The notes beneath the pieces were generated by a model. That model searched no databases. It had not been told where the DNA came from and worked only from the letters and a program-made list of their open reading frames with translations. A stretch of 64,000 nt of DNA from an uncultured Maribacter sp. (GTDB taxonomy: Bacteria; Bacteroidota; Bacteroidia; Flavobacteriales; Flavobacteriaceae): positions 18,924-82,923 of the forward strand of contig CANMKG010000012.1 of assembly GCA_947498505.1 (NCBI GenBank). The letters run 5' to 3'. The translations under genes were made by a program, and so were the position numbers. Each line of letters opens with the position of its first letter. The stretch's first letter is position 1. This document shows, piece by piece, positions 24,238 to 61,535 of this stretch.

Positions 24238-27150
24238 ATGCGATTTAATATAGCTATCTATATATTTTTTATTGGTTTTTTTTCTGCGCAAGCGCAAACC
24301 AATCCTTTAGTTACAAACGATAGCTTAGCCCAGCACCATTGGGTAGAGGAGCAATACAATGAAATGTCTCTTGAGGATAAGTTTGGACAGTTATTCATGG
24401 TAAGCCTAGCTTCAAATGGTAGTAAGTCCGCTGTAACAAGGATTAAAAAACTTATTAGAGAGCAAAAAATTGGTGGAGTTATTTTTTCTAAAGGAGGGCC
24501 AATTCAGCAAGCAAAGCTTACGAATACCTTTCAGAATATTTCTAACACTCCGCTTTTAATAGGAATGGATGCAGAATGGGGGCTTGCAATGCGTTTAGAT
24601 TCTACATACGCTTTCCCCTGGAATATGACTTTAGGCGCTATTAAGGATAATAGTATTGTTGAAAAAGTAGGCTATAGGATAGGTTTACATGCAAAACGAT
24701 TAGGAGTTCATATAAATTTTGCACCAGATGTGGATATTAATACAAATCCTAAAAACCCAATTATTGGAAATAGATCGTTTGGTGAAAATCGTGAAAATGT
24801 TACTGAGAAAGGAGTTTCGTTTATTAAGGGAATGCATAAAGCTGGTGTTTTATCAAGCGCAAAACACTTTCCTGGTCATGGAGATACAGCAACGGATTCT
24901 CATTTAGCTCTGCCTACCATTAATTTTGAAAGAAAACGATTAGATAGTATAGAGCTTTACCCCTATAAAAAAATGATTCAGGAAGGGGTTAGCAGTATTA
25001 TGGTTGCTCATTTATATGTTCCGCATTTAGAATTGAAAGAAGATTTACCTTCATCTCTTTCTGAACAAATTGTTACCGGAGTTTTAAAAGAAGAAATGAA
25101 ATTTAATGGTTTAGTTTTTACCGATGCCCTAAATATGAAAGGAGCTTCTGATTATGGAAAAGAAGGAGAGGTGGAGACAATGGCACTCTTGGCGGGTAAT
25201 GACATTTTATTAATGCCAACATCAGTAGAACTGGCAAAAAAAAGGCTGTTAAAATTATATAATAAGGGGAAAATTTCAGAGGAACGCTTAGCACATTCTG
25301 TTAAAAAAATACTGCTCGCAAAATATAAAGTAGGGCTTCACAAAAAAAATAATGTAAAAATTCAAAATTTACATGCTGACTTAAATTCGTTAGATGATGA
25401 TTTAGTATATGAGGAGGCAATTGAAAATGCTATAACAGTCATTAAAAATAAGTTCAATTTAATTGGAATTAAAAGATTAGAGAATAAAAAAATTGCCTAC
25501 ATAAAATTTGGAAATGATGATAATGAAGCTTTTGTAAAAGAGTTACGTAAATATGCGGATGTTGCCTTAATAAACGCAAATGATATTAGTACTATAAAAA
25601 AGCAACTTTCAGCATTTAATTTGGTTATTATAGGTCATCATACAAACAATGATAGTCCTTGGAAACCATATAAATTTTCAAAAACAGAGCGATTTTGGTT
25701 GCAGGAAATAGCTAGTGTTCGTACCTCTAATACTATTTTATGTACATTTTCTAAGCCGTATTCACTATCGGATATCACAGACTTTAACAGTATAGATGCT
25801 GTGGTGGTTGGCTATCAAAACAGTAAAATGGCGCAGCAAAAAATGGCACAGTTAATTTTTGGAGCCATTCCAGCAAAGGGAGAATTGCCGGTTAGTATTA
25901 CCGATGAATTTCCAGCAGGTACCAAGGTGACTTTAAGTTCTCTAAAAAGGTTAGGATATAGTTTTCCTGAGCGTACAGGGATGAGTTCTATAAAATTAAA
26001 GGAAATAGATAGGTTGATTCAAAATGGGCTTGATTCTCTGATGTTTCCTGGAGCGCAGGTGGTTGTTGCTCGAAAGGGAAAAATAATATATAATAAAGGT
26101 TTTGGTAAGCCTACGTACAATTCTAAAGAAAAAATCACACCAAATCACATTTATGATTTGGCATCGGTAACAAAAATTTTAGCTACACTTCCTGTAATAA
26201 TGAAAATGGAAGAAGAAAATAAAATAGCTTTAAACAATACCTTTCAGGAGTTAATTCCAGAATATTCAGATACCGAAATTAAAAATGTTACGGTACTAAA
26301 AGCTCTGTCTCACTATGGAAGATTGCCCGCATGGATAGCTTTTTATGCTGCAACACTTAACAAAAATAAAAAACCATCTAAAGAGTTTTATAGAAATACC
26401 TTAGAAGATGGATTTTCAACCAAAGTTATAGATGGGTTGTATTTAGCAGACGCCTATAAAGATTCTATATATAATCGTATTGGAAGGCAAGATTTAAAAT
26501 CGAATAGATATCGTTATAGTGATGTGGCCTATTATGTGATGAAAAAGTATGCAGAAGATACGTATAAAAATAAATTGGATAAACTGGCATTAGATTTTAT
26601 TTATAAGCCAATAGGAGCTACTAAAACAAGATATAATCCTTTGGATGAATATGATAAATCAATAATAGTGCCTTCAGAGGAAGATACCTATTATAGGTAC
26701 CAAACTGTACAGGGATATGTACATGACATGGGGGCAGCAATGCAGGGTGGAGTAGGAGGTCATGCCGGATTGTTTAGTAATGCAAATGATGTTGCTAAAA
26801 TTATGCAAATGTACCTTCAAGGGGGCTCCTATGGTGGAACACGTTTTTTTGATTCGCGAACAATTAAAAAGTTTAACACTTGTTACTTTTGTCATAAAAA
26901 TGTAAGAAGAGGAGTTGGTTTTGATAAACCACAATTAGAAGAAAGTGGACCTACTTGTGGTTGTGTTTCTCGTAAAAGTTTTGGTCATAGTGGATTCACA
27001 GGAACATATACATGGGCGGATCCAGAAGAAGAAATTGTCTACGTTTTCTTATCAAATAGAACTTATCCAACTGCATCTAACAGACTTTTAGTTAAATCTG
27101 GGTTAAGAACTAGAATTCAACAAGCCATTTACGACTCAATACTAAATTAA
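24238..27150 (+). CDS. Secreted fusion protein: glycoside hydrolase family 3 (NagZ-like beta-N-acetylhexosaminidase) N-terminal half plus a serine beta-lactamase/PBP-like hydrolase C-terminal half
   Basis: 970 aa with a signal peptide (FFSAQAQ). The GH3 signature KHFPGHGDT is in the N-terminal half, along with NFAPDVDI and NRSFG. The C-terminal half has the S-x-x-K motif (LASVTK) and HSGFTG, typical of class C/AmpH-like serine hydrolases. Confidence 0.8.
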   Translation: MRFNIAIYIFFIGFFSAQAQTNPLVTNDSLAQHHWVEEQYNEMSLEDKFGQLFMVSLASNGSKSAVTRIKKLIREQKIGGVIFSKGGPIQQAKLTNTFQNISNTPLLIGMDAEWGLAMRLDSTYAFPWNMTLGAIKDNSIVEKVGYRIGLHAKRLGVHINFAPDVDINTNPKNPIIGNRSFGENRENVTEKGVSFIKGMHKAGVLSSAKHFPGHGDTATDSHLALPTINFERKRLDSIELYPYKKMIQEGVSSIMVAHLYVPHLELKEDLPSSLSEQIVTGVLKEEMKFNGLVFTDALNMKGASDYGKEGEVETMALLAGNDILLMPTSVELAKKRLLKLYNKGKISEERLAHSVKKILLAKYKVGLHKKNNVKIQNLHADLNSLDDDLVYEEAIENAITVIKNKFNLIGIKRLENKKIAYIKFGNDDNEAFVKELRKYADVALINANDISTIKKQLSAFNLVIIGHHTNNDSPWKPYKFSKTERFWLQEIASVRTSNTILCTFSKPYSLSDITDFNSIDAVVVGYQNSKMAQQKMAQLIFGAIPAKGELPVSITDEFPAGTKVTLSSLKRLGYSFPERTGMSSIKLKEIDRLIQNGLDSLMFPGAQVVVARKGKIIYNKGFGKPTYNSKEKITPNHIYDLASVTKILATLPVIMKMEEENKIALNNTFQELIPEYSDTEIKNVTVLKALSHYGRLPAWIAFYAATLNKNKKPSKEFYRNTLEDGFSTKVIDGLYLADAYKDSIYNRIGRQDLKSNRYRYSDVAYYVMKKYAEDTYKNKLDKLALDFIYKPIGATKTRYNPLDEYDKSIIVPSEEDTYYRYQTVQGYVHDMGAAMQGGVGGHAGLFSNANDVAKIMQMYLQGGSYGGTRFFDSRTIKKFNTCYFCHKNVRRGVGFDKPQLEESGPTCGCVSRKSFGHSGFTGTYTWADPEEEIVYVFLSNRTYPTASNRLLVKSGLRTRIQQAIYDSILN

Positions 27151-27219: not shown

Positions 27220-28365
27220 ATGAAAATAGCAATAGTTTGTTATCCAACTTTTGGAGGAAGTGGAGTTGTTGCCACAGAATTAGGTATAGCTTTGGCTACC
27301 AGAGGACACGAGGTTCATTTTGTAACCTACAAGCAACCCGTAAGATTAGAGCTTCTAAATAATAATATATATTTTCATGAAGTTCATGTGCCAGAGTACC
27401 CGTTATTTCATTATCAGCCTTATGAGCTTGCTCTGTCTAGTAAACTGGTAGACACTATTAAACTATATGATATAGATTTGCTTCATGTACATTACGCAAT
27501 TCCTCATGCCTATGCTGGATATATGGCAAAAAAAATGTTGGAAGAAGAAGGTATTCATGTTCCAATGATTACAACATTGCATGGTACTGATATTACTTTA
27601 GTGGGTAAACATCCGTTTTATAAGCCCGCTGTTACATTTAGTATTAATCAATCAGATGTAGTAACATCGGTTTCTGAGAGTTTACGGCAACAAACTTTAG
27701 ACTTGTTTGATATAAAGGGAGAAATAGAAGTTGTTTCTAACTTCATAGATAAACGGAAATACAGCCCTAATTATACGGATTGCGAACGTACCGCAATGGC
27801 AAACGATGACGAAAGAATAGTTACACATATTAGTAATTTTAGAAAGGTAAAACGCATTCCAGATGTGCTTCATATTTTCAATAAAATACAAGAAGAAATT
27901 CCCGCGAAATTGATAATGGTAGGTGAAGGGCCAGAAAAAGAGAATGCAGAATTTATTTGTGAGCAATTGAGAATAACAGATAAGGTGATTTTTCTAGGAA
28001 ATAGCAACGAAATTGATAGAATATTGTGTTTTTCAGACTTGTTTTTACTACCGTCTGAAACTGAAAGTTTTGGATTAGCTGCTTTAGAGGCAATGATTAA
28101 TAAAGTTCCTGTAATTTCAAGTAATTCCGGTGGAATCCCAGAGGTTAATAAACATGGTGTTTCAGGATATTTAAGTGATGTTGGAAACGTTGAGGAAATG
28201 GCCGTTAATGCGCTGAAAATATTGAGAAATGATATGGACTTAAATGCTTTTAAGAAAAATGCTGTAACCGTTGCAGAACAGTTTGATATTTTACAAATCT
28301 TGCCCAAATACGAGGAAATATACGAAAGAGCCTATAGTAGCAGATTTAAAAATGTAGATAGATAA
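27220..28365 (+). CDS. bshA: N-acetyl-alpha-D-glucosaminyl L-malate synthase (bacillithiol biosynthesis GT4 glycosyltransferase)
   Basis: 381 aa. The N-terminus is MKIAIVCYPTFGGSGVVATELG..LA.RGHEVHF. It also has the GT4 E-x7-E region (PSETESFGLAALEAM). This matches what I remember of BshA in Flavobacteriia and Firmicutes. Confidence 0.8.
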   Translation: MKIAIVCYPTFGGSGVVATELGIALATRGHEVHFVTYKQPVRLELLNNNIYFHEVHVPEYPLFHYQPYELALSSKLVDTIKLYDIDLLHVHYAIPHAYAGYMAKKMLEEEGIHVPMITTLHGTDITLVGKHPFYKPAVTFSINQSDVVTSVSESLRQQTLDLFDIKGEIEVVSNFIDKRKYSPNYTDCERTAMANDDERIVTHISNFRKVKRIPDVLHIFNKIQEEIPAKLIMVGEGPEKENAEFICEQLRITDKVIFLGNSNEIDRILCFSDLFLLPSETESFGLAALEAMINKVPVISSNSGGIPEVNKHGVSGYLSDVGNVEEMAVNALKILRNDMDLNAFKKNAVTVAEQFDILQILPKYEEIYERAYSSRFKNVDR

Positions 28366-29705: not shown

Positions 29706-29730
29706 GATTGTATTTTAGATAGAATAAAAG

Positions 29731-29762
29731 AGCTAAAGGTTTATTTTCTTTAGCTTTTTTTT
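29731..29762. terminator. Rho-independent terminator between the convergent ompA-family gene and the last gene of the polysaccharide locus
   Basis: AGCTAAAG (29731-29738) pairs with CTTTAGCT (29748-29755), followed by T7. AAAAG lies upstream. Confidence 0.65.
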
Positions 29763-29780: not shown

Positions 29781-31016
29781 CTAAACTTCGGTTATGCATA
29801 CCTCTTTAATGTTTTTTACGCTTTTAATTAAATATTTGTTTTTGCTTATTACGTATAATTCCGTTTCCGACAACTTTTCTTGATTTAGATATAAGAAATC
29901 AAAAAGGACAATTTTTAAGAAACTATATTTTTTTTTGTTATAATCTAAGTGAGTTAGTTCATTTGTTTCATAAACCGTGGAAGGATTGCTAAATTCATGT
30001 TTTATAGATAGTTTTTTTTCCCTTCTTCTGTTTTTAAATTTAAAAGTGATTCTATGCAGTTTTTGGTTTATTTTTTTAGTTCTTAAAAATTGCTTGAAGT
30101 CGAAATAAATTTTAAGATAAATGGCAATTGCACTAGATATTATTGAAGCGCTATTATAATAAATTTGATATTCATAATTATATTGTAGGTCACTCCATCT
30201 TACTTTATAGTCAAAATAACCTTTGGAAAAATCAAGAATTTTATACTCGTTTTGAATTCCCCATTCAATAAGCTTCATTATGGTTACTGAGCCTAAGTGA
30301 AATTTAGCATAATCAATATCGAAAACGGTAATAGCATCAAAAATTATTGACTCTGAAAAATAGATAAGTGTAATTCCAACGGGAATGTTGTTGGAGTAGA
30401 TTACAAATAAAGCGGCTTTTTTTTCAAGTATTAGGGGAAAGGTTACTTCATTGTAAAAGTTCCATTCTTCAAGATTTAAATTGTTATTTATAGTTTGTTT
30501 GTCTTGAAAACGCTTTTGTAATAAATCTTTAAAGCAGGAGAAAATATAGTTATAATCTTTTTTAGAAATTTCACCAAAAAAAAACTTGTAATCAATATCA
30601 AAACATAGCTCCAATCTTTTTTTATACTTGTTTAGTTTATATCGACTACTTTTTCTAAAGGTTTTTATTAAATAATCATTTAAGTTTTCATAATTATATA
30701 GATGAATTAAAAAACCAGGATATTGTTTACTAGTAAATAGTTTTAAAACTCCTTGAGTTTTTATATTAAAATGTTGCGGGACATCATATATTAGATAAAC
30801 GTTTTTTTTGTGAGAGATGAATTGTGTGTTACTTAATGAGTAGTATATACCCTTGGTATGAGTTTTGCCAACGTTACTATATAAAGGTATTTTTTTTAAT
30901 TTTACAAAGGATATTCCTTTAAACTCAGGAAACGTTATTACAGTATTGTTTGAGGCAAAGTGCTTAACCCAAACGTTTGAAAAAATGCTAGACGAGAATG
31001 GATTTTTAATTCTCAT
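29781..31016 (-). CDS. GNAT-superfamily protein of the Acetyltransf_6 / BioF2-like / CelD(BcsL)-like type
   Basis: 411 aa. It has the central pattern FRKSSRYKLNKYKKRLE and a C-terminal ILDFSKGYFDYKVRW, which resembles the family motif DF.RG...YK.RW. It overlaps the upstream gene by 11 nt. Confidence 0.6.
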   Translation of the reverse strand: MRIKNPFSSSIFSNVWVKHFASNNTVITFPEFKGISFVKLKKIPLYSNVGKTHTKGIYYSLSNTQFISHKKNVYLIYDVPQHFNIKTQGVLKLFTSKQYPGFLIHLYNYENLNDYLIKTFRKSSRYKLNKYKKRLELCFDIDYKFFFGEISKKDYNYIFSCFKDLLQKRFQDKQTINNNLNLEEWNFYNEVTFPLILEKKAALFVIYSNNIPVGITLIYFSESIIFDAITVFDIDYAKFHLGSVTIMKLIEWGIQNEYKILDFSKGYFDYKVRWSDLQYNYEYQIYYNSASIISSAIAIYLKIYFDFKQFLRTKKINQKLHRITFKFKNRRREKKLSIKHEFSNPSTVYETNELTHLDYNKKKYSFLKIVLFDFLYLNQEKLSETELYVISKNKYLIKSVKNIKEVCITEV

Positions 31017-32070
31017 TTTCTTTATGTAGCATTAAATTACACCTATAACATGGAAAGAAATCTGTACAATTGTTAAAGTTTAATTTGCAAGATTTTGTTT
31101 GCATTTGGAATACTAAGTTTTTGTATAGATTTTGGTCGATTGTGTATTTCCATAATTTAAACGTCTTGTAGTCTTTAGAAAAACCAGATTTAAATTTTAG
31201 AAGAGAATCTTCTTTATTGCCTACACCGCCTCCTAGATTAAAAAAAATAAAATTTTCAGAGCTTGCCTGCAACCTCATTTCATCGATTAATAGTTTAATG
31301 GCATTATATTCCAAATAATTTTCCTTTGAGCCTGATAGATGATACTGAATAATTTTATTTTTTTTAATGAACATTGCTCCAGCAATGATTTCGTTAGATA
31401 ATTTATCAATAGCAACCAATAACTCTGTTTGAAAAGCGTTACTATCAAAAAATGAAAAAAAGTATTCTTTTGGAAAAAAGTAATTGGAAGTGGCGTTTAC
31501 TCTTTTCATGTTAGCGTGATATATCTTTACAAATTCAGTAATATCATCTTTGGAGTTTACTTTTTTTATGTAACACAGTTTTCTAGATTTATTTATATAG
31601 GTCTTATATCTTTTACTATAATCTTTCTTTTGGTTTTCGAGGTTTTTTGTTAGATCAATGTTTACAATTTTACCTGAATTGTAAATGAATCCAATGTTTT
31701 TTAAAACTGTTTCTTGATTTGAAACGAATGGATTAAGTCTGGAGAAAACAGTAATTATGTTTTGTTCAAGTAATACTTTGTTCAGCTCATTTTTGAAATT
31801 GATATTATCAAAATCAGAATCAATGTTGATGGTAAGAGGTCCTGAATACCCATAAACCGAGGTAGCATCAAAGTAATTGGTGTTCCCGATTTTTCGAAGC
31901 AATAGTGGAAGTCCAATTACTTTGTTATCCTCCTTATATTGTATTAAAATAGGAGTTTCATTTAGGGACTTTGATAGCAGGTGATAATCGAAGGTGTGAT
32001 AAAAATCCGCGTTTTCACATTGATTTATTAGATTACACCATGCTTTCTTTTTAGTAATAATAGTTGTCAT
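31006..32070 (-). CDS. FemAB-like (aminoacyl-tRNA-dependent transferase fold) / Acetyltransf_6 family protein
   Basis: 354 aa. The strings DFYHTFDYH, YGYSGP, YSKRYKTYINKSRK, YHLSGS and NLGGGVG..EDSLLKFKSGFS fit the FemA/FemX-type layout. Confidence 0.6.
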   Translation of the reverse strand: MTTIITKKKAWCNLINQCENADFYHTFDYHLLSKSLNETPILIQYKEDNKVIGLPLLLRKIGNTNYFDATSVYGYSGPLTINIDSDFDNINFKNELNKVLLEQNIITVFSRLNPFVSNQETVLKNIGFIYNSGKIVNIDLTKNLENQKKDYSKRYKTYINKSRKLCYIKKVNSKDDITEFVKIYHANMKRVNATSNYFFPKEYFFSFFDSNAFQTELLVAIDKLSNEIIAGAMFIKKNKIIQYHLSGSKENYLEYNAIKLLIDEMRLQASSENFIFFNLGGGVGNKEDSLLKFKSGFSKDYKTFKLWKYTIDQNLYKNLVFQMQTKSCKLNFNNCTDFFPCYRCNLMLHKENEN

Positions 32071-32112
32071 TCCAAAGAAGTACTACTAATTATTACTACA
32101 AAACTATACTAC

Positions 32113-32769
32113 CTAAACAATTTTTACTTCATTATATGATGAAATAAACTTTTGAGGCATATATTTTTCCTCGTTGAATAAGTGAGAATTACTATGAATA
32201 TTAAGACCATTGTCCAACAAAGCTATAGTATTCCACCCTAATTTGTTTGGTGCTATAAAATCTTTTTTAAGATTATCTGCTATATAGTAATAATTACAAT
32301 CTTTAAACTTTTTTTCAATTGCCAAGTAATTTTCTTGACATGGTTTTTCAGTGCCAATTTCTTCAGAAATTACGACTTCATTTATGACATTTGACAGGTT
32401 CAATGAAGTAATTTTGTTTAATTGAGTGGTTTTTCTACCATCAGTTATTATGCAAACTTTACCTTTTTTAGCTTTAATTTGTTCAATTATGGTAAGTACG
32501 TTGTCAAATAATGAAATATTTGGCTTATGGTTTCTGTATAAGTCTATTAAATCTTTTACACTTATTTCATATGTTTTGGATAGAAATTCGAAAACGTTTT
32601 CATTTGAGCGGTATAACGAAAAAATTCTTGCATACAAAGGCATCCAATAATTACCCTCAAGCTTCATGGCAATTTCTTTATAAGCAGACTTTAAGTACTC
32701 TATTTCGTTGTATAACGTATCGTCTAAATCAAAAACAATAACTGTAGAACTATTAATCTTGATATCCAT
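32113..32769 (-). CDS. HAD-superfamily hydrolase (probable phosphatase)
   Basis: 218 aa with HAD motif I (VIVFDLDDTLY), motif II-like ITDG and motif IV-like YIADN.KKDF. It overlaps the ATP-grasp gene by 17 nt. Confidence 0.75.
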   Translation of the reverse strand: MDIKINSSTVIVFDLDDTLYNEIEYLKSAYKEIAMKLEGNYWMPLYARIFSLYRSNENVFEFLSKTYEISVKDLIDLYRNHKPNISLFDNVLTIIEQIKAKKGKVCIITDGRKTTQLNKITSLNLSNVINEVVISEEIGTEKPCQENYLAIEKKFKDCNYYYIADNLKKDFIAPNKLGWNTIALLDNGLNIHSNSHLFNEEKYMPQKFISSYNEVKIV

Positions 32770-33721
32770 GAACTAGTATTTCGTCATCATATCTAATCAT
32801 TAACAAATTATCTTCCCAGCAATCAAATTGCTCCTCAATTTTTTGGTCCAACAAATACTCGGCAATAATCCATTTTGGAAAATTTGCTCCTGCTAAATAG
32901 GAGAGCGGGTAGCCTCCTCCAAATCTGGGATTAATCTCAATTGCATAAACACTATCTTTAGTTTTATGCTTGAAAAACTGAGCGGTAATACATCCAACGG
33001 CTCCATCTATGTAATTCAATTTTTCCTTTATATAACCTACCAATTCATTATGTCTGGTAAGCGCTTTGTATACCTCTCCATCTCTAACTTCAACTCGCTT
33101 TCTTGGGACTGCGCATTTTAACAAATGATTTTTATCGTAATATAAATCGCATGTAAACTCGTCATGAAGCTGATGGTCTATATATTCTAGAAACATAAGT
33201 TTGTTGTTACTAAAATGGTAATCAGTTAAATCATCTTTTGTTTTAATTAAATAAGTGTCTACACTTCTACTACCATCTATAGGTTTTATAAATAGAGGTA
33301 GTTTGTAGTCATCCTTTTTGTACTCTTTGGCTATATTAACACCTTTGTCATCAAAAAAATCGTGTATCTGTCTTTTGTCCCGACATTTTTGGACAAAACC
33401 TTCAGAGGCAATAATAGGCTTTATGCCTTTACTTAGAAGCAGTTGTTTATTTTTTGATAATAAAAGGAGTTCAGTATCTATTGTAGGAATAATTAATTTA
33501 ATGTTAAACTCTTCACATTTTTTTATTAAAAATGGAAGGTAATCATTGCTATCTAATCTAGGGACTTTAAAATTTTCATCAGCTATTTGGCAAGCAGCGG
33601 ATAAAATGGGATTAGCATCTGCGGCATAAACTTTAGCTTCTGGATTAATTTTTTTTAACTCCTTTTGAAAAGCTCTTACCAGGGACACTCTTCTACCTGC
33701 AGATGATATTAAAATATTCAT
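32753..33721 (-). CDS. ATP-grasp domain ligase (carbamoyl-phosphate-synthase-L-like / PylC-like amide ligase)
   Basis: 322 aa. It starts MNILISSAGRRVSLVRAF (pre-ATP-grasp). It also has FIKPIDGSRS and a C-terminal EINPRFGGGYPLS Mg-ATP motif. Its start overlaps the GT2 stop by 4 nt. Confidence 0.75.
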   Translation of the reverse strand: MNILISSAGRRVSLVRAFQKELKKINPEAKVYAADANPILSAACQIADENFKVPRLDSNDYLPFLIKKCEEFNIKLIIPTIDTELLLLSKNKQLLLSKGIKPIIASEGFVQKCRDKRQIHDFFDDKGVNIAKEYKKDDYKLPLFIKPIDGSRSVDTYLIKTKDDLTDYHFSNNKLMFLEYIDHQLHDEFTCDLYYDKNHLLKCAVPRKRVEVRDGEVYKALTRHNELVGYIKEKLNYIDGAVGCITAQFFKHKTKDSVYAIEINPRFGGGYPLSYLAGANFPKWIIAEYLLDQKIEEQFDCWEDNLLMIRYDDEILVHGYQD

Positions 33722-34737
33722 TTAACTAAATTATAAAACGTTCTAAAGACTTTAATAAATGGATTAATTAAAGGCTTTCTGTTAAAAATAAAAACCGATA
33801 TTGCATATAAAGGCCCGTGATAATCCTTACCTAAGAATTTGTTTAATGGATATGCATCAACTTTTTCAAAACCACTAAGCATCTCAGGGATTTTCTTTAT
33901 CGAAATGTCTGATTTCATTAACCGCACTAACAAAAAAAACACAAACGACTGTTGTCTAGTTTTTAACCTTTTAATACACTTGTGAGCATTTCCATGGTTT
34001 TTTGGTATACTGTCAATCAATCCATGAAAAACATGAGCCGCATTTGCGTTGTCAAATATAACCTTTTTATAATGTTCAGGACTTTTATTTCTCATTGCAG
34101 AGGTAGGAAGAATTCTATATCTATGAGCATCCAAATTTATATGAGCCATTTTTTTTGCAACACAAAACAATTCGGTAGTTAAAATAGCATCTTCCATCCA
34201 TTTTCCTTCAATAAAACGAATTCCTGTTGATAACATGAATTCTCTATTGATGATGTACCACCAAATCTCATTATGATATTTTTTGTTGGAAATGTAGGTA
34301 ATACCATCTTCTATATTAATCTCTTGTGAAAATTTTTCTAAATTGGATGAATCATTGTTATCATCATCATAGACCTCGACACTATTAAAAGAAAGGATAT
34401 TTAATTTGTTGTTATTAGCAAGATTGTAAATAATAGTCAAAACATCTTTGGCAAGATAATCATCTGGATCAAGAAAATATAAATACTTTCCAACCGCTAC
34501 ATCAAGACCAGAGTTTCTGGCCGCACCAACTCCTGCATTTTTTTTATCTATAACTTTTATATTACTGTTTTTATTAGCATATGCATTAGCTATAGCTAAG
34601 GTGCCATCCTTTGACTCGTCATTAACTATAATAATTTCAAACTCTTCTTTAGGAAAATCCTGTACGAGCAAACTATCCAAACATTTTGGAAGGTATTTCT
34701 CCATGTTGTAACATGGAATAATAAAACTTAACTTCAT
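33718..34737 (-). CDS. Glycosyltransferase family 2
   Basis: 339 aa with SFIIPCYNMEKYL, VNDESKDGT and the DxD motif FLDPDD. Confidence 0.85.
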   Translation of the reverse strand: MKLSFIIPCYNMEKYLPKCLDSLLVQDFPKEEFEIIIVNDESKDGTLAIANAYANKNSNIKVIDKKNAGVGAARNSGLDVAVGKYLYFLDPDDYLAKDVLTIIYNLANNNKLNILSFNSVEVYDDDNNDSSNLEKFSQEINIEDGITYISNKKYHNEIWWYIINREFMLSTGIRFIEGKWMEDAILTTELFCVAKKMAHINLDAHRYRILPTSAMRNKSPEHYKKVIFDNANAAHVFHGLIDSIPKNHGNAHKCIKRLKTRQQSFVFFLLVRLMKSDISIKKIPEMLSGFEKVDAYPLNKFLGKDYHGPLYAISVFIFNRKPLINPFIKVFRTFYNLVK

Positions 34738-38958: not shown

Positions 38959-39384
38959 TTACCATTTTGATTTAAAAGTGTCTAAAGAAAACCTAAAATC
39001 ATCATTTTTAGATTGCTCTAAGGTGAAATTTGAGTAAACAATAAGCTCAGAATCACTATCTATTGCTTTAAATGCTGTTGCATATCCTTTAGGAATCGCT
39101 AAAATTTGAAGCTCATTACTTTCTAAAAAAAAGGTTTCTGAAGTTAAATTAGTGCTCGGTTTTTCAAAATTATCAACCTTAACTAAATTAACGGTAAAAC
39201 CTCCCCTTGAGCAATAGAACCATTTTTTTTCGTCCTTATGGGCTTGCCAACCTCTTATAAATTCAGAATCGTTAGGTTGTATTTGATAAAACCTAACGAT
39301 TTCTTTCATGTCAAAAGCGTTAAAAAACAAAAGCTTACCTCTGTTATCTGAAAAGCTACTTCCTTGAATTAAGGTGGTTTTCAT
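38959..39384 (-). CDS. Stand-alone cupin-fold protein (WxcM/FdtA-like or WbuC-like)
   Basis: 141 aa. SDNRGKL...IRGWQAHKDEKKWFYCSRG resembles the FdtA/QdtA R-G-x-H-A-H-K core, but Gln replaces the first His. It lies between fnlA and fnlB and shares 1 nt with the fnlA stop. Confidence 0.55.
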   Translation of the reverse strand: MKTTLIQGSSFSDNRGKLLFFNAFDMKEIVRFYQIQPNDSEFIRGWQAHKDEKKWFYCSRGGFTVNLVKVDNFEKPSTNLTSETFFLESNELQILAIPKGYATAFKAIDSDSELIVYSNFTLEQSKNDDFRFSLDTFKSKW

Positions 39385-41702: not shown

Positions 41703-42470
41703 ATGATTATTATAAATAGTGATGATTTTGGGTTTTCTCCCGAAATCAACAAAGCTACATATATAGCCTTTAAAGAGGGGCTTATCAGTTCTACAACTAC
41801 TTTAGTGAATTTCGAGGAGGGGTTTATTGATGCTCTCAAGTATATTAAAGAAGATAAACTAGATAAAAAGGCAATTGGTATTCATTTAAACTTAACGGAA
41901 GGTATTCCACTGACCGAAAAAATTAAGAAAAATCCTAGATTTTGCGTAGATGGAAAATTTATCAATAAAAGATCCTCAGCAACTGCATTTAAATTAGATG
42001 CTTTTTCAAAAGAATGTGTCTATGAAGAAATTGAAGCTCAGTTAAAACGTTTTATAAGTAAATTTGGTTTTATACCAAGCCATATAGATTCTCATCACCA
42101 TATTCATACTGAATTTTCTATTACAAAATGTATTTTAGATTTAGCTAAAAAATATAAAATAAAGTGTATTAGGTTGGCAAGAAATACAGGAGAAAAGAAT
42201 GATATAAAAAGGGCTATTTATAGAGGGCTTTTAAATGGTTATATGCGGTTAAGAGGGGCTAGGGGTACTGATAAGTTTGGTGGTGTAGAGGATATTATTT
42301 TTTCAGGAATTAAGCCCAATGTTAATTATGAGATTATGGTACACGCTATTCTACCACTTAATGAAGAGAAGTTGGTGGATTTGGATAATCTTGATTTAAG
42401 AGGGAAGTTGGTAAAACTTTTTAAAGGTGAGAACTGGCAAATTAGTAATTATACTGATTTAATAAACTAA
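41703..42470 (+). CDS. YdjC/ChbG/HpnK-family carbohydrate deacetylase
   Basis: 255 aa starting MIIINSDDFGFSPEIN. This matches the family signature (N/A)DDFG.S..(I/V)N with the catalytic Asp. There is also a downstream DSHHHIH metal site. It is the only plus-strand gene inside the minus-strand arm. Confidence 0.75.
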   Translation: MIIINSDDFGFSPEINKATYIAFKEGLISSTTTLVNFEEGFIDALKYIKEDKLDKKAIGIHLNLTEGIPLTEKIKKNPRFCVDGKFINKRSSATAFKLDAFSKECVYEEIEAQLKRFISKFGFIPSHIDSHHHIHTEFSITKCILDLAKKYKIKCIRLARNTGEKNDIKRAIYRGLLNGYMRLRGARGTDKFGGVEDIIFSGIKPNVNYEIMVHAILPLNEEKLVDLDNLDLRGKLVKLFKGENWQISNYTDLIN

Positions 42471-51918: not shown

Positions 51919-53961
51919 TTAATTGCTTTCAGATGGTGGTTGAAAATTGTTATTGCTCCATGTACAATTTTTAAAGGCAACATCAAATTTACTATAAGGC
52001 TTGTATTTGCCATCAGCTTCAACATAGGCTATATTTCCATTTGAAAAAGAAGAGTTTTCAAAAACAATATCTTCAGTTGGAGTATAAGTAACTGCAATGG
52101 TATTAAAATCAGAAATTTCGCAATTTTTAAAAGTGTTTCTTCTTGCCCAAGAGTAAAACTGTTCTCTTTCTCCAACCCTAAGAGCACTATTTGTTTTTGT
52201 GATTTTTAATCCGTCGAAAGTATTGTCATATCCACAACTCAATTCATCTCTATCTCCACCAGGACCAACATATCCATCTTCATAATCTATCCAAACAATG
52301 GCTGTCCAGGTGTTTTCAATTGTCATGTTTTTAATTAGGTTGTTATTGGCTCCGTTAAAAATACCTAATCTTGATTCCCATTGCCCTGTTTGCGTTCCAT
52401 TTCCGTAAATAAAACAATTTTCGAAAACATTGTTTTTTACTCCTGAGAAGTTCAACTCAAAACTTGTTTTTCTTGCAGTACAGTTAATGAACAAATTGTT
52501 TTCACCTAAATCTTTAATTGTAAATCCATGTCCTCCATGGCTAAGTGAAGCTTCTCTTTCAGCGTATGAATTTTCAATAACGCTGTTGTTTGTCCCTCCA
52601 GTTAGTAAAAAGTAATAGTCAGTAGGGTTATTCGGGTTATTAGCATAAACCGAACAGTTGTTAACTCTTGAGTTATCAGAATTAAAAAGTTTGATAGCTT
52701 CGGCTGTAGCATTTAACACAAAACAATTCTCTATTAAGGCATTTTCACTACCATTAAGAGCAATTCCCCATCCATCATAGGCATTGTATTCATTTTGATT
52801 TCCAAGATTAATAGCGACAATATTTTTTAGTACTAGGTTGTTCCCAGTTGATTCAATTCCTTTACTGTAACCAGTAATCTGAAAATTTTCAAGGTGTATA
52901 TGGTTCTCAAATGTTTTGATACTAGTGGAATTTGAATAATTATTGGATTTTAATAAAGGCATAAAATCAGAATTTAAATTGTCTCCAATTTTAAATGTTG
53001 AGCCATTTTCACTTGAGATATCACCTGGAGTATTTTGATATCCAATAAATTTTATTGGATTGTTTAAGGAGCCTGAATTGTCAACAGTTAGCTCCACGGC
53101 GCCATAGTCTCCTGCTTTTATATATACTATGTCCCCTGCCTTTGCTGTTTCAAAAGCGTATTGTATATTCCACGCAGTTGCCTCTGTTAAACCATCGTTA
53201 TTTGCACTTCCGTTTGTTGTTACAAAATAACCATCAGTATCTGTAGGGGTAGGCGTTGGTTCTGGTTCGGGTGTTGGTTCTGGTTCAGGTGTTGGTTCTG
53301 GTTCAGGAATTTCTAGTTCAGGAGAGTCTTTATCAGCTAAGTAAGAAACTATAAGCTTTGCTCCTTTATTGTTTGAATTTTCTTTTGAAGCAAATGCTAA
53401 GTCATCACTTCCATTATGGGTAAGTACTAAACTTGTTTTTTCATTGTTTAACTCGGCAGCTTCAAGTGCTAGTTGGTTAGCAAGCCCAACTTTATAATCT
53501 TTGCTAATGGACCCTAGCAGCGTTTCTTTTTCAGGAGAGTTATTGTCGGTTAGATTTTCTTCAGACCAATCATTGGAAGAACCTTTATGCACACTGATGG
53601 TTCCAGAGCCTTCGTCGCTGTCAACGTTGAATTCTAAGACAGCACTTGTAATTTCTCCATCAATAGGACTTAGATCAAACATTAAATAACTTGTTCTAAA
53701 CCCTTCTTGTAGTCTTACAATATTTTTATTGTGCCCGTCTGAATCTTGAATATAGGCATCATTAATCGGAGAAAAGGAAAAGGAACGTTCTACTAGGTTG
53801 ACGTTACTTTTTTCTTCGTTACTTTTTTCTTCAATTGACGTTTCGGAATTTTTAAGAGCAGAATCTAAGAAAATATCTGAGTCTTTACTACATGAGATAA
53901 GGCTAAATAGGGCAATAAAAAATACGGTCAACATGTAGGTTTTAGTCGTTGTTCTTTTCAT
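51919..53961 (-). CDS. Lipoprotein: N-terminal DNRLRE/CBM96-like domain, (PEPEPT)n linker, C-terminal right-handed parallel beta-helix domain; paralogue of 48899..51739
   Basis: 680 aa with lipobox LISC (Cys24) followed by SKDSD. It shares identical strings with its neighbour: RTSYLMFDLSPID, NPTDYYFL, GHGGHGFT, GQWESRL, IFNGANNN, DGYVGPGGDRDE, WARRNTF and AVTYTPTEDI. Confidence 0.7.
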   Translation of the reverse strand: MKRTTTKTYMLTVFFIALFSLISCSKDSDIFLDSALKNSETSIEEKSNEEKSNVNLVERSFSFSPINDAYIQDSDGHNKNIVRLQEGFRTSYLMFDLSPIDGEITSAVLEFNVDSDEGSGTISVHKGSSNDWSEENLTDNNSPEKETLLGSISKDYKVGLANQLALEAAELNNEKTSLVLTHNGSDDLAFASKENSNNKGAKLIVSYLADKDSPELEIPEPEPTPEPEPTPEPEPTPTPTDTDGYFVTTNGSANNDGLTEATAWNIQYAFETAKAGDIVYIKAGDYGAVELTVDNSGSLNNPIKFIGYQNTPGDISSENGSTFKIGDNLNSDFMPLLKSNNYSNSTSIKTFENHIHLENFQITGYSKGIESTGNNLVLKNIVAINLGNQNEYNAYDGWGIALNGSENALIENCFVLNATAEAIKLFNSDNSRVNNCSVYANNPNNPTDYYFLLTGGTNNSVIENSYAEREASLSHGGHGFTIKDLGENNLFINCTARKTSFELNFSGVKNNVFENCFIYGNGTQTGQWESRLGIFNGANNNLIKNMTIENTWTAIVWIDYEDGYVGPGGDRDELSCGYDNTFDGLKITKTNSALRVGEREQFYSWARRNTFKNCEISDFNTIAVTYTPTEDIVFENSSFSNGNIAYVEADGKYKPYSKFDVAFKNCTWSNNNFQPPSESN
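53255..53308. repeat. Three tandem copies of an 18-bp unit (GTTGGTTCTGGTTCRGGT) encoding the PEPEPT linker
   Basis: The three copies are at 53255-53272, 53273-53290 and 53291-53308. They differ at 1-2 positions. The repeat is in-frame (6 codons per unit) on the minus strand. Confidence 0.9.
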
Positions 53962-58474: not shown

Positions 58475-59608
58475 TTGACAACTAAATCCAAAATTTGGCT
58501 TTCATCTCCTCACATGGGACATAATGAAGAGCATTATGTGAAGGAAGCTTTTGATACAAATTGGGTTGCTCCATTGGGACCCAACGTAACTTTATTTGAA
58601 GAAGCAATAACTAAATATGTTGGAGGTAATGTACATGTAGCTGCGCTAAGTGCAGGCACAGCGGCAATTCATTTAGCTCTTAAAATGTTAAATGTTTCTC
58701 ATGGAGATGAAGTAATTTGCCAAAGCTTTACTTTTTCAGCGTCTGCAAATCCCATAATGTATTTGGGAGCCACTCCTATTTTTGTGGATAGTGAAAGAGA
58801 TACATGGAATATATCTCCTGAGCTCCTTAAAGAAGCTATAGAGGATAGAATGGCTAAAGGGAAAAAACCAAAAGCAATTGTTGGTGTACACTTATATGGT
58901 ATGCCTTATAAAATAGATGAAATAAAAGCAGTAGCAGATGAATACGGTATTCCAATTGTAGAGGATAGTGCGGAAGCACTTGGTAGTAAATATAAGGGAG
59001 TACAATGTAGCAGTTTCGGTGATATAGGAATTTTATCTTTTAATGGGAATAAAATTATAACCACTTCAGGTGGTGGCGCTTTGGTTTCTAAAAAAGAAGA
59101 GTATAAGAAAAAAGCAATATTTTTAGCAACTCAAGCGAGAGATGATGCACCTCATTATCAGCATTCTAATGTTGGATTTAATTACAGGATGAGTAATGTT
59201 TTGGCTGGAATTGGAAGAGGACAAATGGAGGTTTTGGATGAAAGAGTTGCATCAAGAAGAGCTAATTATGAATTTTATGTTAATAAATTAGGTAAATTAG
59301 AGGGGGTAGAATTTGTTAAAGAGCCTGAAGGGTTTTATTCTAACAGATGGCTTACGTGCATATTAACAGATTCTTTTCAAGTTAGAGAAAATATTAGATT
59401 AAGGCTGCAAGAAGAAAATATTGAATCTAGACCATTGTGGAAACCAATGCACTTGCAACCGATTTTTGAAAAATACCCTAACTATTCAGATGGAACGTCT
59501 TTAGATTTATTTGAAAGAGGATTATGTCTACCAAGTGGTTCAAATTTAACCACTGAGGATTTAGAAAGAATAACCACCACAATCATTAAAGAACTCACCA
59601 ATGATTAA
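58475..59608 (+). CDS. DegT/DnrJ/EryC1/StrS-family PLP-dependent sugar aminotransferase (PglE/WcfR-like, UDP-4-keto-6-deoxy-HexNAc 4-aminotransferase)
   Basis: 377 aa with a TTG start. IWLSSPHMG..E..YV.EAFDTNWVAPLGPNV is a typical N-terminus. The PLP-lysine region is SFNGNKIITTSGGGAL. It is coupled to the downstream dehydratase by an 8-nt overlap. Confidence 0.85.
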   Translation: MTTKSKIWLSSPHMGHNEEHYVKEAFDTNWVAPLGPNVTLFEEAITKYVGGNVHVAALSAGTAAIHLALKMLNVSHGDEVICQSFTFSASANPIMYLGATPIFVDSERDTWNISPELLKEAIEDRMAKGKKPKAIVGVHLYGMPYKIDEIKAVADEYGIPIVEDSAEALGSKYKGVQCSSFGDIGILSFNGNKIITTSGGGALVSKKEEYKKKAIFLATQARDDAPHYQHSNVGFNYRMSNVLAGIGRGQMEVLDERVASRRANYEFYVNKLGKLEGVEFVKEPEGFYSNRWLTCILTDSFQVRENIRLRLQEENIESRPLWKPMHLQPIFEKYPNYSDGTSLDLFERGLCLPSGSNLTTEDLERITTTIIKELTND

Positions 59609-61535
59609 AAATTACTTAGTAAACAATGCCCATAGATACGCGTCTAAATGGCTAGTATTAGGGATAGATGTTTTTTTAATAATTTTTGCATTTGTATTGT
59701 CGTACTTAATAAGGTTTAATTTAACCTTGAATTTTGATATTGACAAACTATTGATACAATTGCCAATAGTAGCTACAATAGCAATAATTTCTTTTTTAAT
59801 AACCGGTTCGTATAAAGGAGTAGTAAGACATACAGGGGTTAGGGATGTTTATAACATTTTTAATGCAGTATGTTTGTCTAGTATCATAAGCATATTCATG
59901 GTTATTGGTAATAGAGAATTCGGATTAATAGATAGCTTTACGATTCCTTTATCAATAATAATAACTCATAGTTTAATCGGTTTTATTGCTTTAACAGCTG
60001 CGAGATATGTTTTTAAGACATTGTATTTTAATGTTGTTAAAAAGTTTAAATTAACCAAAAATGTGTTAATCTATGGAGCAGGAGAATCAGGTATTTTAAC
60101 TTATAATGCAATGACCAATCAGACTAGCAGTAGTTCAAGGGTAATTGGTTATATTGATGATGATTTAAAAAAAGTAGGGAAAAACATTAACGGTATACCT
60201 GTATATAGCAAACAAGATTTATCAGAATATTTTATAGCTAATAGAGATGTTTCTGAAATTATTGTTTCTATTAATAATGTGGAAAGCAGTAAACTAAGAG
60301 AGTTGGTAGAGAGTTTAGTTGAGTTTCCTGTAAAAGTTAAAATTGTACCTCCTGTTGAGAGCTGGATTAATGGAGAACTTAAGGTTTCTCAGATTAAACA
60401 GGTACAAATCGAAGATTTACTTAATCGTGTGCCAATAGATATTAAAAAATCTAAAATCTCGGAGGAATTAAAAGAGAAAGTGGTAATGGTTACTGGTGGA
60501 GCGGGTTCTATTGGAAGTGAAATAGTTAGGCAGATAGCTAATTATGACTATAAATCTTTAATTGTTATAGATCAAGCGGAATCAGCGTTGTATGATTTGC
60601 AACAAGAATTGAAGCAAAATGGCTTTCATAATTTTATTCCTATAGTTGCGGATATTAGGGATAAGAATAGGATGAATACTTTTTTTCAAGAATATAAGCC
60701 AACAACAGTGTTTCATGCAGCAGCATATAAACATGTACCCTTAATGGAATACAATTCTTATGAGGCAATCAAAATTAATGTTATTGGCACAAAAATAGTT
60801 GTTGATTTAGCACTTGCTCACAATGTGGAGAAATTTGTGTTTGTTTCCACGGATAAAGCGGTGAACCCCACTAACGTTATGGGAGCCACTAAACGAATTG
60901 CAGAGATGTATATTAGTAGTATGCAGCAAGAAAATAAAACTAAATTTATTACTACTAGATTTGGTAATGTTTTAGGTTCTAATGGATCAGTAATTCCTTT
61001 GTTTAAAAAACAAATTGAAAAAGGAGGTCCTTTAACCGTAACTCATAAAGATATTACAAGATATTTTATGACAATTCCCGAGGCATCTCAACTTGTGTTA
61101 GAAGCAGGAGCAATGGGGCAGGGAGGTGAAATATTTATTTTTGATATGGGTGAATCTGTCAAGATTTTCGATTTAGCCAAAAATATGATTAGACTATCTG
61201 GGCTTAAATACCCTGAAGATATTGATATTAAAGTTACTGGATTGCGCCCAGGAGAAAAGTTGTATGAGGAATTACTAGCAAATGGAGAGAATACGCTACC
61301 AACTTATCATAAGAAAATTTTAATCGGAAAAACAAGAGAGCTGGACTATTCCTTAGTCAGATCTAAAATTGACGAGTTATGTGTGTCCAACATGTTTTTT
61401 AATGGAAACACAGTAGCTTTAATGAAAGAAATTGTTCCAGAATATGTTTCTAACAATTCTGATTTATGTGAGTTTGACAAAAAGGAAAGAAATACAGTTA
61501 AAAACAAAGAAGATAAGAAGATATTGCAGTCATAA
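59601..61535 (+). CDS. Membrane-bound UDP-N-acetylglucosamine 4,6-dehydratase (CapD/PglF/WbpM family)
   Basis: 644 aa with four N-terminal TM helices. It has two Rossmann regions (IYGAGESG; VTGGAGSIGSE), plus VSTDKAVNPTNVMGATKR and TRFGNVLGS. Confidence 0.88.
   Translation: MIKNYLVNNAHRYASKWLVLGIDVFLIIFAFVLSYLIRFNLTLNFDIDKLLIQLPIVATIAIISFLITGSYKGVVRHTGVRDVYNIFNAVCLSSIISIFMVIGNREFGLIDSFTIPLSIIITHSLIGFIALTAARYVFKTLYFNVVKKFKLTKNVLIYGAGESGILTYNAMTNQTSSSSRVIGYIDDDLKKVGKNINGIPVYSKQDLSEYFIANRDVSEIIVSINNVESSKLRELVESLVEFPVKVKIVPPVESWINGELKVSQIKQVQIEDLLNRVPIDIKKSKISEELKEKVVMVTGGAGSIGSEIVRQIANYDYKSLIVIDQAESALYDLQQELKQNGFHNFIPIVADIRDKNRMNTFFQEYKPTTVFHAAAYKHVPLMEYNSYEAIKINVIGTKIVVDLALAHNVEKFVFVSTDKAVNPTNVMGATKRIAEMYISSMQQENKTKFITTRFGNVLGSNGSVIPLFKKQIEKGGPLTVTHKDITRYFMTIPEASQLVLEAGAMGQGGEIFIFDMGESVKIFDLAKNMIRLSGLKYPEDIDIKVTGLRPGEKLYEELLANGENTLPTYHKKILIGKTRELDYSLVRSKIDELCVSNMFFNGNTVALMKEIVPEYVSNNSDLCEFDKKERNTVKNKEDKKILQS

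Follow-up and report, generated by a model that had tools for sequence, protein, structure and literature searches.

What does a group of four overlapping or closely spaced genes, encoding an ATP-grasp ligase, a HAD phosphatase, a Fem-like protein and an Acetyltransf_6 protein, contribute to the surface polysaccharide whose locus it closes? The question is raised by a 64,000-nucleotide stretch of DNA from an uncultured Maribacter sp. of the Flavobacteriaceae (assembly GCA_947498505.1, contig CANMKG010000012.1, positions 18,924 to 82,923 of the forward strand), hereafter the window, in which the block occupies positions 29,781 to 33,721 on the minus strand and forms the end of a Wzx-dependent locus for a surface polysaccharide. 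The block consists of two cassettes, a conserved core pair (ATP-grasp/HAD) and an accessory, strain-variable pair (Fem-like/Acetyltransf_6). Tentatively, with a probability of about 0.45, both are read as cytoplasmic tailoring cassettes that would decorate the initiating, bacillosamine-type sugar with an unusual acid and with amino acids.

Two cassettes at the end of a polysaccharide locus

Gene neighbourhoods were compared in 24 genome loci carrying the ATP-grasp gene, together with plasmid-borne homologues, and in further loci to which the Fem-like and Acetyltransf_6 proteins led; every gene was scored as present or absent locus by locus within the fetched flanks, and loci that have to be told apart are numbered with the prefix L. 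An earlier reading made from the sequence alone (the sequence-only reading) had treated the four genes as a single module; across the loci examined, the two cassettes are distributed independently. The HAD gene adjoins the ATP-grasp gene in every sufficiently long locus except that of one distant Escherichia coli plasmid homologue (27% identity), and the HAD is an obligate partner of the ligase. This pair spans three phyla (Bacteroidota, Bacillota and Alphaproteobacteria), including loci of Priestia (Bacillota), of Segatella (Bacteroidales) and of the alphaproteobacterial genera Palleronia, Ensifer, Ruegeria and Roseibium. The Fem-like and Acetyltransf_6 genes are found in a subset of the loci, namely the window, its sister L003, L020, L021, L022, Arenibacter L028 and Zobellia L037. 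In eight independent loci these genes lie side by side, always next to a gene for a PglC-like phosphoglycosyltransferase (PGT), whether or not the ATP-grasp pair is there too. Other Maribacter-type loci leave the position behind the HAD gene empty or fill it with genes for a formyltransferase and a PIG-L deacetylase. The window ATP-grasp is 76% identical to the ATP-grasps of loci devoid of Fem genes; hence, its own target is probably the sugar amine, with the Fem-type enzymes probably acting after it or on another atom.

The layout of the block was checked with the listing of open reading frames (ORFs) between 27 and 36 kb, and the junction sequences were read directly. The four minus-strand ORFs lie where the sequence-only reading had placed them (Table 1), and the three overlaps that it gave agree with the sequence. 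Along the minus-strand tail, the PglC-like PGT gene is followed by a GT2 gene and then by the block. The GT2 gene stops and the ATP-grasp gene starts within the same four nucleotides, ATGA, and the two genes are translationally coupled. The HAD start (ATGGATATCAAGATTAA) contains the ATP-grasp end (...CAAGATTAA), forming an overlap of 17 nucleotides, and the Fem-like end (...AATGAGAATTAA) overruns the Acetyltransf_6 start (ATGAGAATT) by 11 nucleotides; a gap of 42 nucleotides separates the HAD and Fem-like genes. A terminator-like hairpin, situated between the convergent 3′ ends of the Acetyltransf_6 gene and an OmpA-family gene, marks the end of the minus-strand arm.

The order of the ATP-grasp and HAD genes and their 17-nucleotide overlap are kept in Arenibacter, Zobellia and Winogradskyella loci, the order PglC-GT2-ATP-grasp-HAD is kept in loci of the Maribacter, Arenibacter and Zobellia types, and the complete four-gene block is present in at least six other genomes; this recurrence places the arrangement beyond chance. 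The combination had also been called unusual, a description that does not hold: over 7,000 homologues of the ATP-grasp exist, the block is also present in Zobellia galactanivorans, and the four-gene combination is a recurrent, uncharacterised arrangement in marine Flavobacteriaceae rather than a rare one. The window stretch itself is identical in two public assemblies (GCA_947497925.1 and GCA_947498585.1), and its next-closest relative is an "uncultured Maribacter sp." isolate.

In Z. galactanivorans DsijT (FP476056.1, 4392041-4413285; L037 5373-14955), the same PglC-GT2-ATP-grasp-HAD-Fem-Acetyltransf_6 block is followed by genes for an MBOAT protein, an AlgX-like SGNH protein and one more Acetyltransf_6 paralogue. 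The same pair of MBOAT and SGNH-like genes is observed in Aquimarina (L029).

Table 1. Positions in the window of the block, its terminator-like hairpin and the associated genes of the polysaccharide locus
Feature	Position	Strand	Basis
Terminator-like hairpin	29726..29760	.	14-pair stem then T run
Acetyltransf_6 double-GNAT protein, 411 aa	29781..31016	-	ORF listing, PF13480
FemX-like double-GNAT protein, 354 aa	31006..32070	-	ORF listing, FemAB
HAD-IA phosphatase, 218 aa	32113..32769	-	ORF listing, HAD_2
ATP-grasp carboxylate-amine ligase, 322 aa	32753..33721	-	ORF listing, Pfam
GT2 glycosyltransferase	33718..34737	-	Glycos_transf_2 117 bits
Small PglC-like monotopic PGT, 200 aa	34746..35348	-	Bac_transf 217.6 bits
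LegC/PglE-type sugar 4-aminotransferase	58475..59608	+	DegT 320 bits; TIGR04181 LegC family 389.6 bits
PglF-like membrane-anchored UDP-GlcNAc 4,6-dehydratase	59601..61535	+	Polysacc_synt_2 410 bits + CoA_binding_3

The ATP-grasp ligase and its HAD partner

Searches against Pfam and NCBIfam upheld the family assignments of the four ORFs; likewise, the claims that the block is set in a glycan locus and that three of the four proteins are members of amide-forming families hold. The ATP-grasp matches PylC-like_N (83.8 bits), ATPgrasp_Ter (48.1 bits) and also ATP-grasp_3. Its sole relative in the PDB is 2pn1, an uncharacterised structural-genomics protein (E 2.6e-32), and the alignment spans ATP-grasp residues 2–317, including EINPRFGGGYP, with the Mg/ATP motif intact. 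At E ≤ 1e-10 there are 7,476 homologues, the best 120 of which are 68–100% identical, and marine Flavobacteriaceae predominate among the top ones (68–85% identity). The HAD matches HAD_2 (66.5 bits) and exceeds the cutoff of TIGR01549 HAD-IA (33.8 bits, cutoff 23.3), and its translation contains all four catalytic motifs (D14-x-D16-x-T18, T109, K142 and D165...D170). No characterised close relative of the HAD was found, and the PDB sequence search gave uncharacterised archaeal HADs only.

The locus holds, as the sequence-only reading had noted, routes both to a sugar 4-amine, through the LegC-family aminotransferase and the PglF-like dehydratase, and to uronic acids, through a UDP-glucose dehydrogenase, a TviB-like UDP-GlcNAc 6-dehydrogenase and a TviC-like 4-epimerase. 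Judged from their sequences, the last two would form UDP-GalNAcA. The PglC-like PGT is presumed to be the initiating enzyme that takes the tailored UDP-sugar, and the remaining genes encode Wzx, several GT4s, a WbuB-like GT4 and FnlA/B/C for L-FucNAc. Family searches of the arm found no PglD-like or other N-acetyltransferase for the 4-amine.

In the classical bacillosamine pathway, PglD sits between PglF-DegT and PglC, and in five Winogradskyella loci the ATP-grasp/HAD pair is located exactly between the same genes. In the window, the PglC-like gene lies 1 kb from the ATP-grasp gene, with DegT and PglF in the same locus; the linkage of the ATP-grasp to PglF, DegT and a small PGT is observed in Winogradskyella, Priestia and Palleronia as well, the order in Priestia (Bacillota) being aminotransferase, PGT, ATP-grasp, HAD. 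A PglC-like PGT gene is present in the flanks of 27 ATP-grasp/HAD loci and, in 29 of the 36 listed loci, near the ATP-grasp and/or the Fem pair; furthermore, the ATP-grasp/HAD pair often lies near a 4,6-dehydratase or 4-aminotransferase gene. PglD-like genes exist in no ATP-grasp locus examined and are limited to two Fem/Acetyltransf_6 loci without ATP-grasp/HAD, those of Maribacter polysiphoniae (L027) and Aquimarina mytili (L029). PglD and the ATP-grasp/HAD pair are thus mutually exclusive in these loci and occupy the same slot in the order dehydratase, aminotransferase, N-acylase, PGT, but their folds and acyl donors are unrelated: PglD is a left-handed β-helix that uses acetyl-CoA, and an ATP-grasp enzyme would draw on ATP and a free acid.

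Among studied systems, the closest is Pat/Pyl (Bc5273/Bc5272) of Bacillus cereus ATCC 14579, from the UDP-yelosamine pathway, where Pyl ligates 2-oxoglutarate to UDP-4-amino-FucNAc. In both systems, an ATP-grasp ligase gene lies beside genes for a sugar 4-aminotransferase and a small PGT, and the 4-amine of UDP-2-acetamido-4-amino-2,4,6-trideoxyhexose would be acylated in PglD's stead. Compared with Pyl, whose published reaction has no role for a phosphatase, the window ATP-grasp has an invariant HAD, and its product may be extended by Fem-type enzymes. By this analogy, the ATP-grasp is proposed to be a Pyl-like N-acylase of a UDP-4-amino sugar. The sequence-only reading had also put forward a uronate carboxylate as the substrate; the sugar 4-amine is favoured as the acceptor instead, given the PGT/DegT/PglF linkage, the fact that the pair and PglD exclude each other, and the precedent of Pyl. 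According to PMC11626204, this ATP-grasp gene and genes for sugar modification are in large part found alongside the small PGTs that make up cluster 24 of a PGT sequence-similarity network, and PMC3210612 describes a flavobacterial O-antigen with a 2-hydroxyglutar-5-yl amide on QuiNAc4N. A link to the 2-hydroxyglutaryl-QuiNAc4N O-antigen of Tenacibaculum maritimum was considered and gained no support, as the published cluster of the type strain lists an acetyltransferase and no ATP-grasp.

Other decoration genes accompany the pair in some loci. A gene resembling methionyl-tRNA formyltransferase stands beside ATP-grasp/HAD in five loci from two phyla, within Flavobacteriaceae and Alphaproteobacteria (L026 11725-13381, L028 6170-7824, L032 6063-6986, L034 5023-5934 and L036 2568-3524), and in the flavobacterial loci it is joined by a PIG-L deacetylase gene. 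This recurrence suggests that an amine is often left after ligation and keeps an amino-acid substrate in play. On a Segatella copri plasmid (L030 1-3657), genes for an adenylation enzyme, a carrier protein, an AAC(3)-family N-acetyltransferase and an alanine racemase are located near the ATP-grasp/HAD homologue; this set resembles a cassette for D-alanyl decoration.

The Fem-like and Acetyltransf_6 proteins

The Fem-like ORF matches Pfam FemAB with 37.2 bits (cutoff 24), and its family profile matches FemX of Weissella viridescens (E 6.2e-8) at an identity of approximately 20%. The residues F293-K294 and Y243 are invariant in 33 Fem-like sequences and are aligned with F304-K305 and Y254 of FemX, respectively; Lys305 is named as the catalytic residue of FemX in PMC12945691. 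The AlphaFold model of the protein (pLDDT 89.5) has FemX as its top Foldseek match (E 1.9e-14; TM-score 0.68 query-normalised and 0.72 target-normalised), followed by Sba18/Sbb17, FemX and FemA of Staphylococcus aureus, and MprF. Both the model and W. viridescens FemX exhibit a double-GNAT fold without the coiled coil of FemA, and in both the lysine follows an aromatic residue.

Sba18/Sbb17 are aminoacyl-tRNA-dependent peptide synthases that were crystallised with streptothrisamine, an amino-sugar compound, and Orf11 of the BD-12 pathway is reported to use Gly-tRNA for the glycylation of an amino-sugar amine. The window protein resembles Fem-like enzymes, such as Orf11 and Sbb17, that are able to aminoacylate an amino-sugar amine from aminoacyl-tRNA. 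It differs from FemX, Orf11 and Sba18/Sbb17 in its setting, which is a Gram-negative polysaccharide locus instead of a peptidoglycan or antibiotic pathway. The Fem-like protein is proposed to be an aminoacyl-tRNA-dependent aminoacyltransferase.

In the case of the Acetyltransf_6 ORF, PF13480 matches residues 151–271 with 31.3 bits (cutoff 22). Its model (pLDDT 90.4) adds a helical hairpin (residues 292–328) and a small C-terminal β domain; the N- and C-terminal extensions gave no match in Pfam, and PDB sequence searches with the protein found nothing. The leading Foldseek matches are MprF and aminoacyl-phosphatidylglycerol synthase domains, FemX, Sbb17 and ATE1, all users of aminoacyl-tRNA, with E-values of 5e-8 to 1e-5 and modest TM-scores of 0.4–0.6 (0.5–0.6 target-normalised). 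The residue K271 is invariant in all 16 orthologues and paralogues; a forced hhalign alignment pairs it with K294 of the Fem-like protein at a non-significant probability of 0.18. The protein is proposed to be a second aminoacyl or acyl transferase. The suggestion that both proteins may use aminoacyl-tRNA thus gains ground from the predicted structures, whose nearest folds are aminoacyl-tRNA-dependent transferases, and from the alignment of FemX Lys305/Phe304 with K294/F293.

By eye, judged without a predictor, neither N-terminus shows an apparent signal peptide or membrane anchor, and a cytoplasmic location would fit the use of aminoacyl-tRNA on intermediates linked to UDP or undecaprenyl diphosphate. 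The window contains no dedicated tRNA genes of the kind that serve staphylococcal Fem enzymes. The family is small, with 1,019 clusters at 50% identity (E ≤ 1e-3), and all its named members are Flavobacteriaceae; by sequence, the pair appears to be confined to marine members of this family.

Several relatives depart from the simple two-gene arrangement. In the Arenibacter palladensis locus (L028 9054-17041) and the Thalassobellus sediminis locus (L022 12680-20966), a single Fem-like gene is followed by at least six tandem Acetyltransf_6 paralogues of approximately 390 residues, and a further tandem array exists in L021 (18689-20548). These arrays extend beyond the fetched loci, so that the number of paralogues is a lower bound. 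Identity among the tandem paralogues is only 25–36%, and the invariant lysine is present in every one. In addition, a metagenomic protein of 766 residues (P0362) combines a Fem-like part, 49% identical to the window protein, with an Acetyltransf_6 part, a fusion that could be an assembly frameshift artefact, and Aquimarina mytili (L029 6250-7998) encodes an apparent 582-residue fusion of PglD_N, Hexapep and Fem/GNAT parts.

Proposed route, its alternatives and the wider locus

A five-step route is proposed from the observed gene order, overlaps, families, folds, conserved lysine and patterns of co-occurrence and exclusion. The PglF-like dehydratase and the LegC/PglE-like aminotransferase, to judge from their families, would generate UDP-2-acetamido-4-amino-2,4,6-trideoxyhexose. 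The ATP-grasp would then replace PglD, activating a carboxylic acid as an acyl-phosphate and linking it as an amide to the 4-amine, as synteny and the Pyl precedent suggest; the acid would be other than acetate, and could be the 2-oxoglutarate that Pyl uses, some different hydroxy or dicarboxylic acid, or else an amino acid. In the step that is weakest as an inference, the HAD-IA phosphatase may strip a phosphate ester borne by the acid, before or after ligation. Subsequently, the FemX-like and Acetyltransf_6 proteins would each transfer an aminoacyl group from aminoacyl-tRNA to an amine or hydroxyl of the sugar or of the new side chain, with the intermediate linked to UDP or undecaprenyl diphosphate, a step suggested by their fold, the conserved catalytic lysine and the constant adjacency to the PGT gene. 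Finally, the PglC-like transferase and the coupled GT2 would build the repeat unit.

The second cassette might go further than single transfers. The Fem-like protein and its Acetyltransf_6 partners could form a tRNA-dependent, non-ribosomal builder of a defined amino-acid or oligopeptide side chain on the bacillosamine-type first sugar, primed by ATP-grasp/HAD, in which the number of paralogues would set the chain length; such a system would be the glycan counterpart of the bridge synthesis by FemX/A/B. The number of Acetyltransf_6 partners per Fem gene varies from one in the window to at least six in Arenibacter and Thalassobellus, and the tandem arrays of divergent paralogues in relatives make peptide-like building more attractive. 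Even so, this extension is considered unlikely.

Several observations weigh against the two-cassette tailoring route. The ATP-grasp, assigned by its sequence to the PRK12767 "carbamoyl-phosphate-synthase-like" type, scores 367 bits against NCBIfam NF009405 (PRK12767.1-4), which is just below the cutoff of 390, and its orthology to Pyl is inferred from family and gene context. The HAD partner is left unexplained by the Pyl chemistry, as published, because that chemistry needs no phosphatase. An ATP-grasp acting on the 4-amine leaves the acceptor of the Fem/Acetyltransf_6 pair undefined, and this pair also occurs with PglD-type N-acylation in place of the ligase. Furthermore, the TM-scores of the Acetyltransf_6 matches are modest, the profile–profile comparison between the Fem-like and Acetyltransf_6 proteins is not significant at full length or for the C-terminal GNAT domain, and relatives of the Acetyltransf_6 protein such as HfsK are proposed to be acyl-CoA-type N-acyltransferases. 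The recurrent formyltransferase genes hint at chemistry outside the model. A search for expression evidence found no public sequencing runs containing the window stretch.

The obligate HAD would find a ready explanation in the glucuronamide pathway of Campylobacter jejuni, with which the sequence-only reading had compared the block and where Cj1438C and Cj1435 likewise unite an ATP-dependent amide former with a HAD phosphatase in a glycan locus. By analogy, the ATP-grasp would amidate the C6 carboxylate of GalNAcA or GlcA with a phosphorylated amine (ethanolamine-P, serinol-P or phosphoserine), the HAD would dephosphorylate the product, and the Fem-like and Acetyltransf_6 proteins would act on the 4-amine. 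The uronic acids are provided by the TviB/TviC-like pair and the UDP-glucose dehydrogenase of the locus, and the lack of PglD would leave the 4-amine for a Fem-type aminoacylation like that of Orf11 and Sbb17. However, the C. jejuni sequences, taken from the supplement of PMC11800397, come from other subfamilies, and no similarity to the window proteins could be detected: Cj1438C falls among the TupA-like ATP-grasps (PF14305; BLASTP E 0.68 against the window ATP-grasp) and Cj1435 among the PF12710 HADs (BLASTP E 2.3 against the window HAD), compared with PylC-like_N/ATPgrasp_Ter and HAD_2 in the window. Homology to these enzymes was accordingly rejected, and the comparison holds only at the superfamily level, as a mechanistic analogy. 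The arm has no pyridoxal-phosphate-dependent enzymes like Cj1436/Cj1437, the sole enzyme of this class in the locus being the DegT/LegC-type sugar aminotransferase. Moreover, a single further ATP-grasp locus had uronate dehydrogenase genes within its flanks, in contrast to the nearly universal PGT genes, and most loci, with ATP-grasp/HAD and neither Fem/Acetyltransf_6 nor PglD, would be left with a bare 4-amine. The acceptors differ as well, a uronate carboxylate in the growing chain in C. jejuni and, from the gene context, a sugar amine in the window. The glucuronamide route is thus quite improbable here; its logic, in which a phosphorylated partner is ligated and then dephosphorylated, is by analogy a possible model for the presence of a phosphatase beside the ligase. 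A still weaker case can be made that the block merely neighbours the glycan locus and serves to modify a different envelope component, for instance lipids that contain amino acids or precursors of peptidoglycan. Flavobacteria make amino-acid lipids, the Acetyltransf_6 protein has MprF-like fold matches, and the block closes the arm, adjoining the OmpA-family gene; the translational coupling of the ATP-grasp to the GT2 and the constant position of both cassettes beside a PglC-like PGT in many genera, and for the ATP-grasp pair across phyla, make such a role highly improbable.

For the second cassette, a tRNA-free explanation has to be weighed, in which both of its proteins would be N-acyl or N-acetyl transferases that depend on acyl-CoA and re-acylate an amine exposed by a deacetylase. 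The annotation of PF13480 as a GNAT acetyltransferase family agrees with this, a candidate YdjC/chitin-disaccharide-deacetylase-like gene (41703-42470, plus strand) is located in mid-arm on the opposite strand, and PIG-L deacetylases stand beside Fem genes in Arenibacter. The YdjC-like product could expose a sugar amine; its gene is limited to the window and its closest relatives and is not present in the other Fem/Acetyltransf_6 loci. A literature search for Fem-like enzymes in polysaccharide synthesis found only HfsK of Caulobacter crescentus, a FemX-like tandem GNAT genetically tied to a surface polysaccharide, the holdfast, and set beside the window proteins by description only. HfsK is proposed to N-acylate holdfast polysaccharide alongside the deacetylase HfsH, and its biochemical donor was never determined. 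HfsK is under c-di-GMP control through its C-terminal tail and acts together with a polysaccharide deacetylase; the window proteins, unlike HfsK, are encoded beside a PGT and an ATP-grasp, and their relatives form large paralogue arrays. The structural matches that rank first, and have the highest TM-scores, without exception use aminoacyl-tRNA, and the equivalents of FemX Lys305/Phe304 and Tyr254 are invariant. Acyl-CoA dependence is therefore held to be rather unlikely, and transfer from aminoacyl-tRNA is retained in the tailoring route.

The wider locus contains further genes of interest. Two large minus-strand proteins are encoded between the nucleotide-sugar genes and Wzx, one of 946 residues with CBM96, PKD repeats and a β-helix (48899-51739) and one of 680 residues with CBM96 and a β-helix (51919-53961); both could be secreted glycan-binding or depolymerising proteins. 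A 141-residue WxcM/cupin-like ORF (38959-39384, minus strand) is inserted between FnlA and FnlB and occupies the same position in related loci at 54–58% identity. Just outside the locus, a 970-residue protein (24238-27150, plus strand), whose homologue in L001 has Glyco_hydro_3 and Beta-lactamase Pfam domains, is adjoined by a GT4 gene (27220-28365) that is 77–81% conserved across genera. In many relatives, a conserved protein of approximately 683 residues with an N-terminal HAD domain is encoded between the polysaccharide locus and the OmpA-family gene (L005 11941-13989, L026 13745-15796 and L037 15256-17307) and is absent from the window. Two unannotated membrane-type ORFs gave no match in Pfam.

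The ATP-grasp is a further member of a known and barely studied kind, and the Fem-like/Acetyltransf_6 pair, encoded as it is in a Gram-negative polysaccharide locus, would be a variant of Fem/MprF-type aminoacyl transfer. If the tailoring route is correct, a replacement for PglD would be defined in thousands of polysaccharide loci across three phyla, and a role would be assigned to the HAD that travels with the Pyl-like ligase. Aminoacyl-tRNA-dependent transfer, so far observed in peptidoglycan, lipids, proteins and a few antibiotics, would also reach the surface polysaccharides of Gram-negative bacteria. The tandem Acetyltransf_6 arrays in Arenibacter and Thalassobellus are the most intriguing lead, toward tRNA-dependent peptide building on a glycan. 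Since genetic tools exist for Z. galactanivorans DsijT and this strain carries the block, the question is directly testable there. Marine Flavobacteriaceae are major degraders of algal polysaccharides and hosts of phages; were the route to hold, a variable acid or peptide decoration of the O-antigen or capsule would shape their phage receptor diversity, surface charge and particle attachment.

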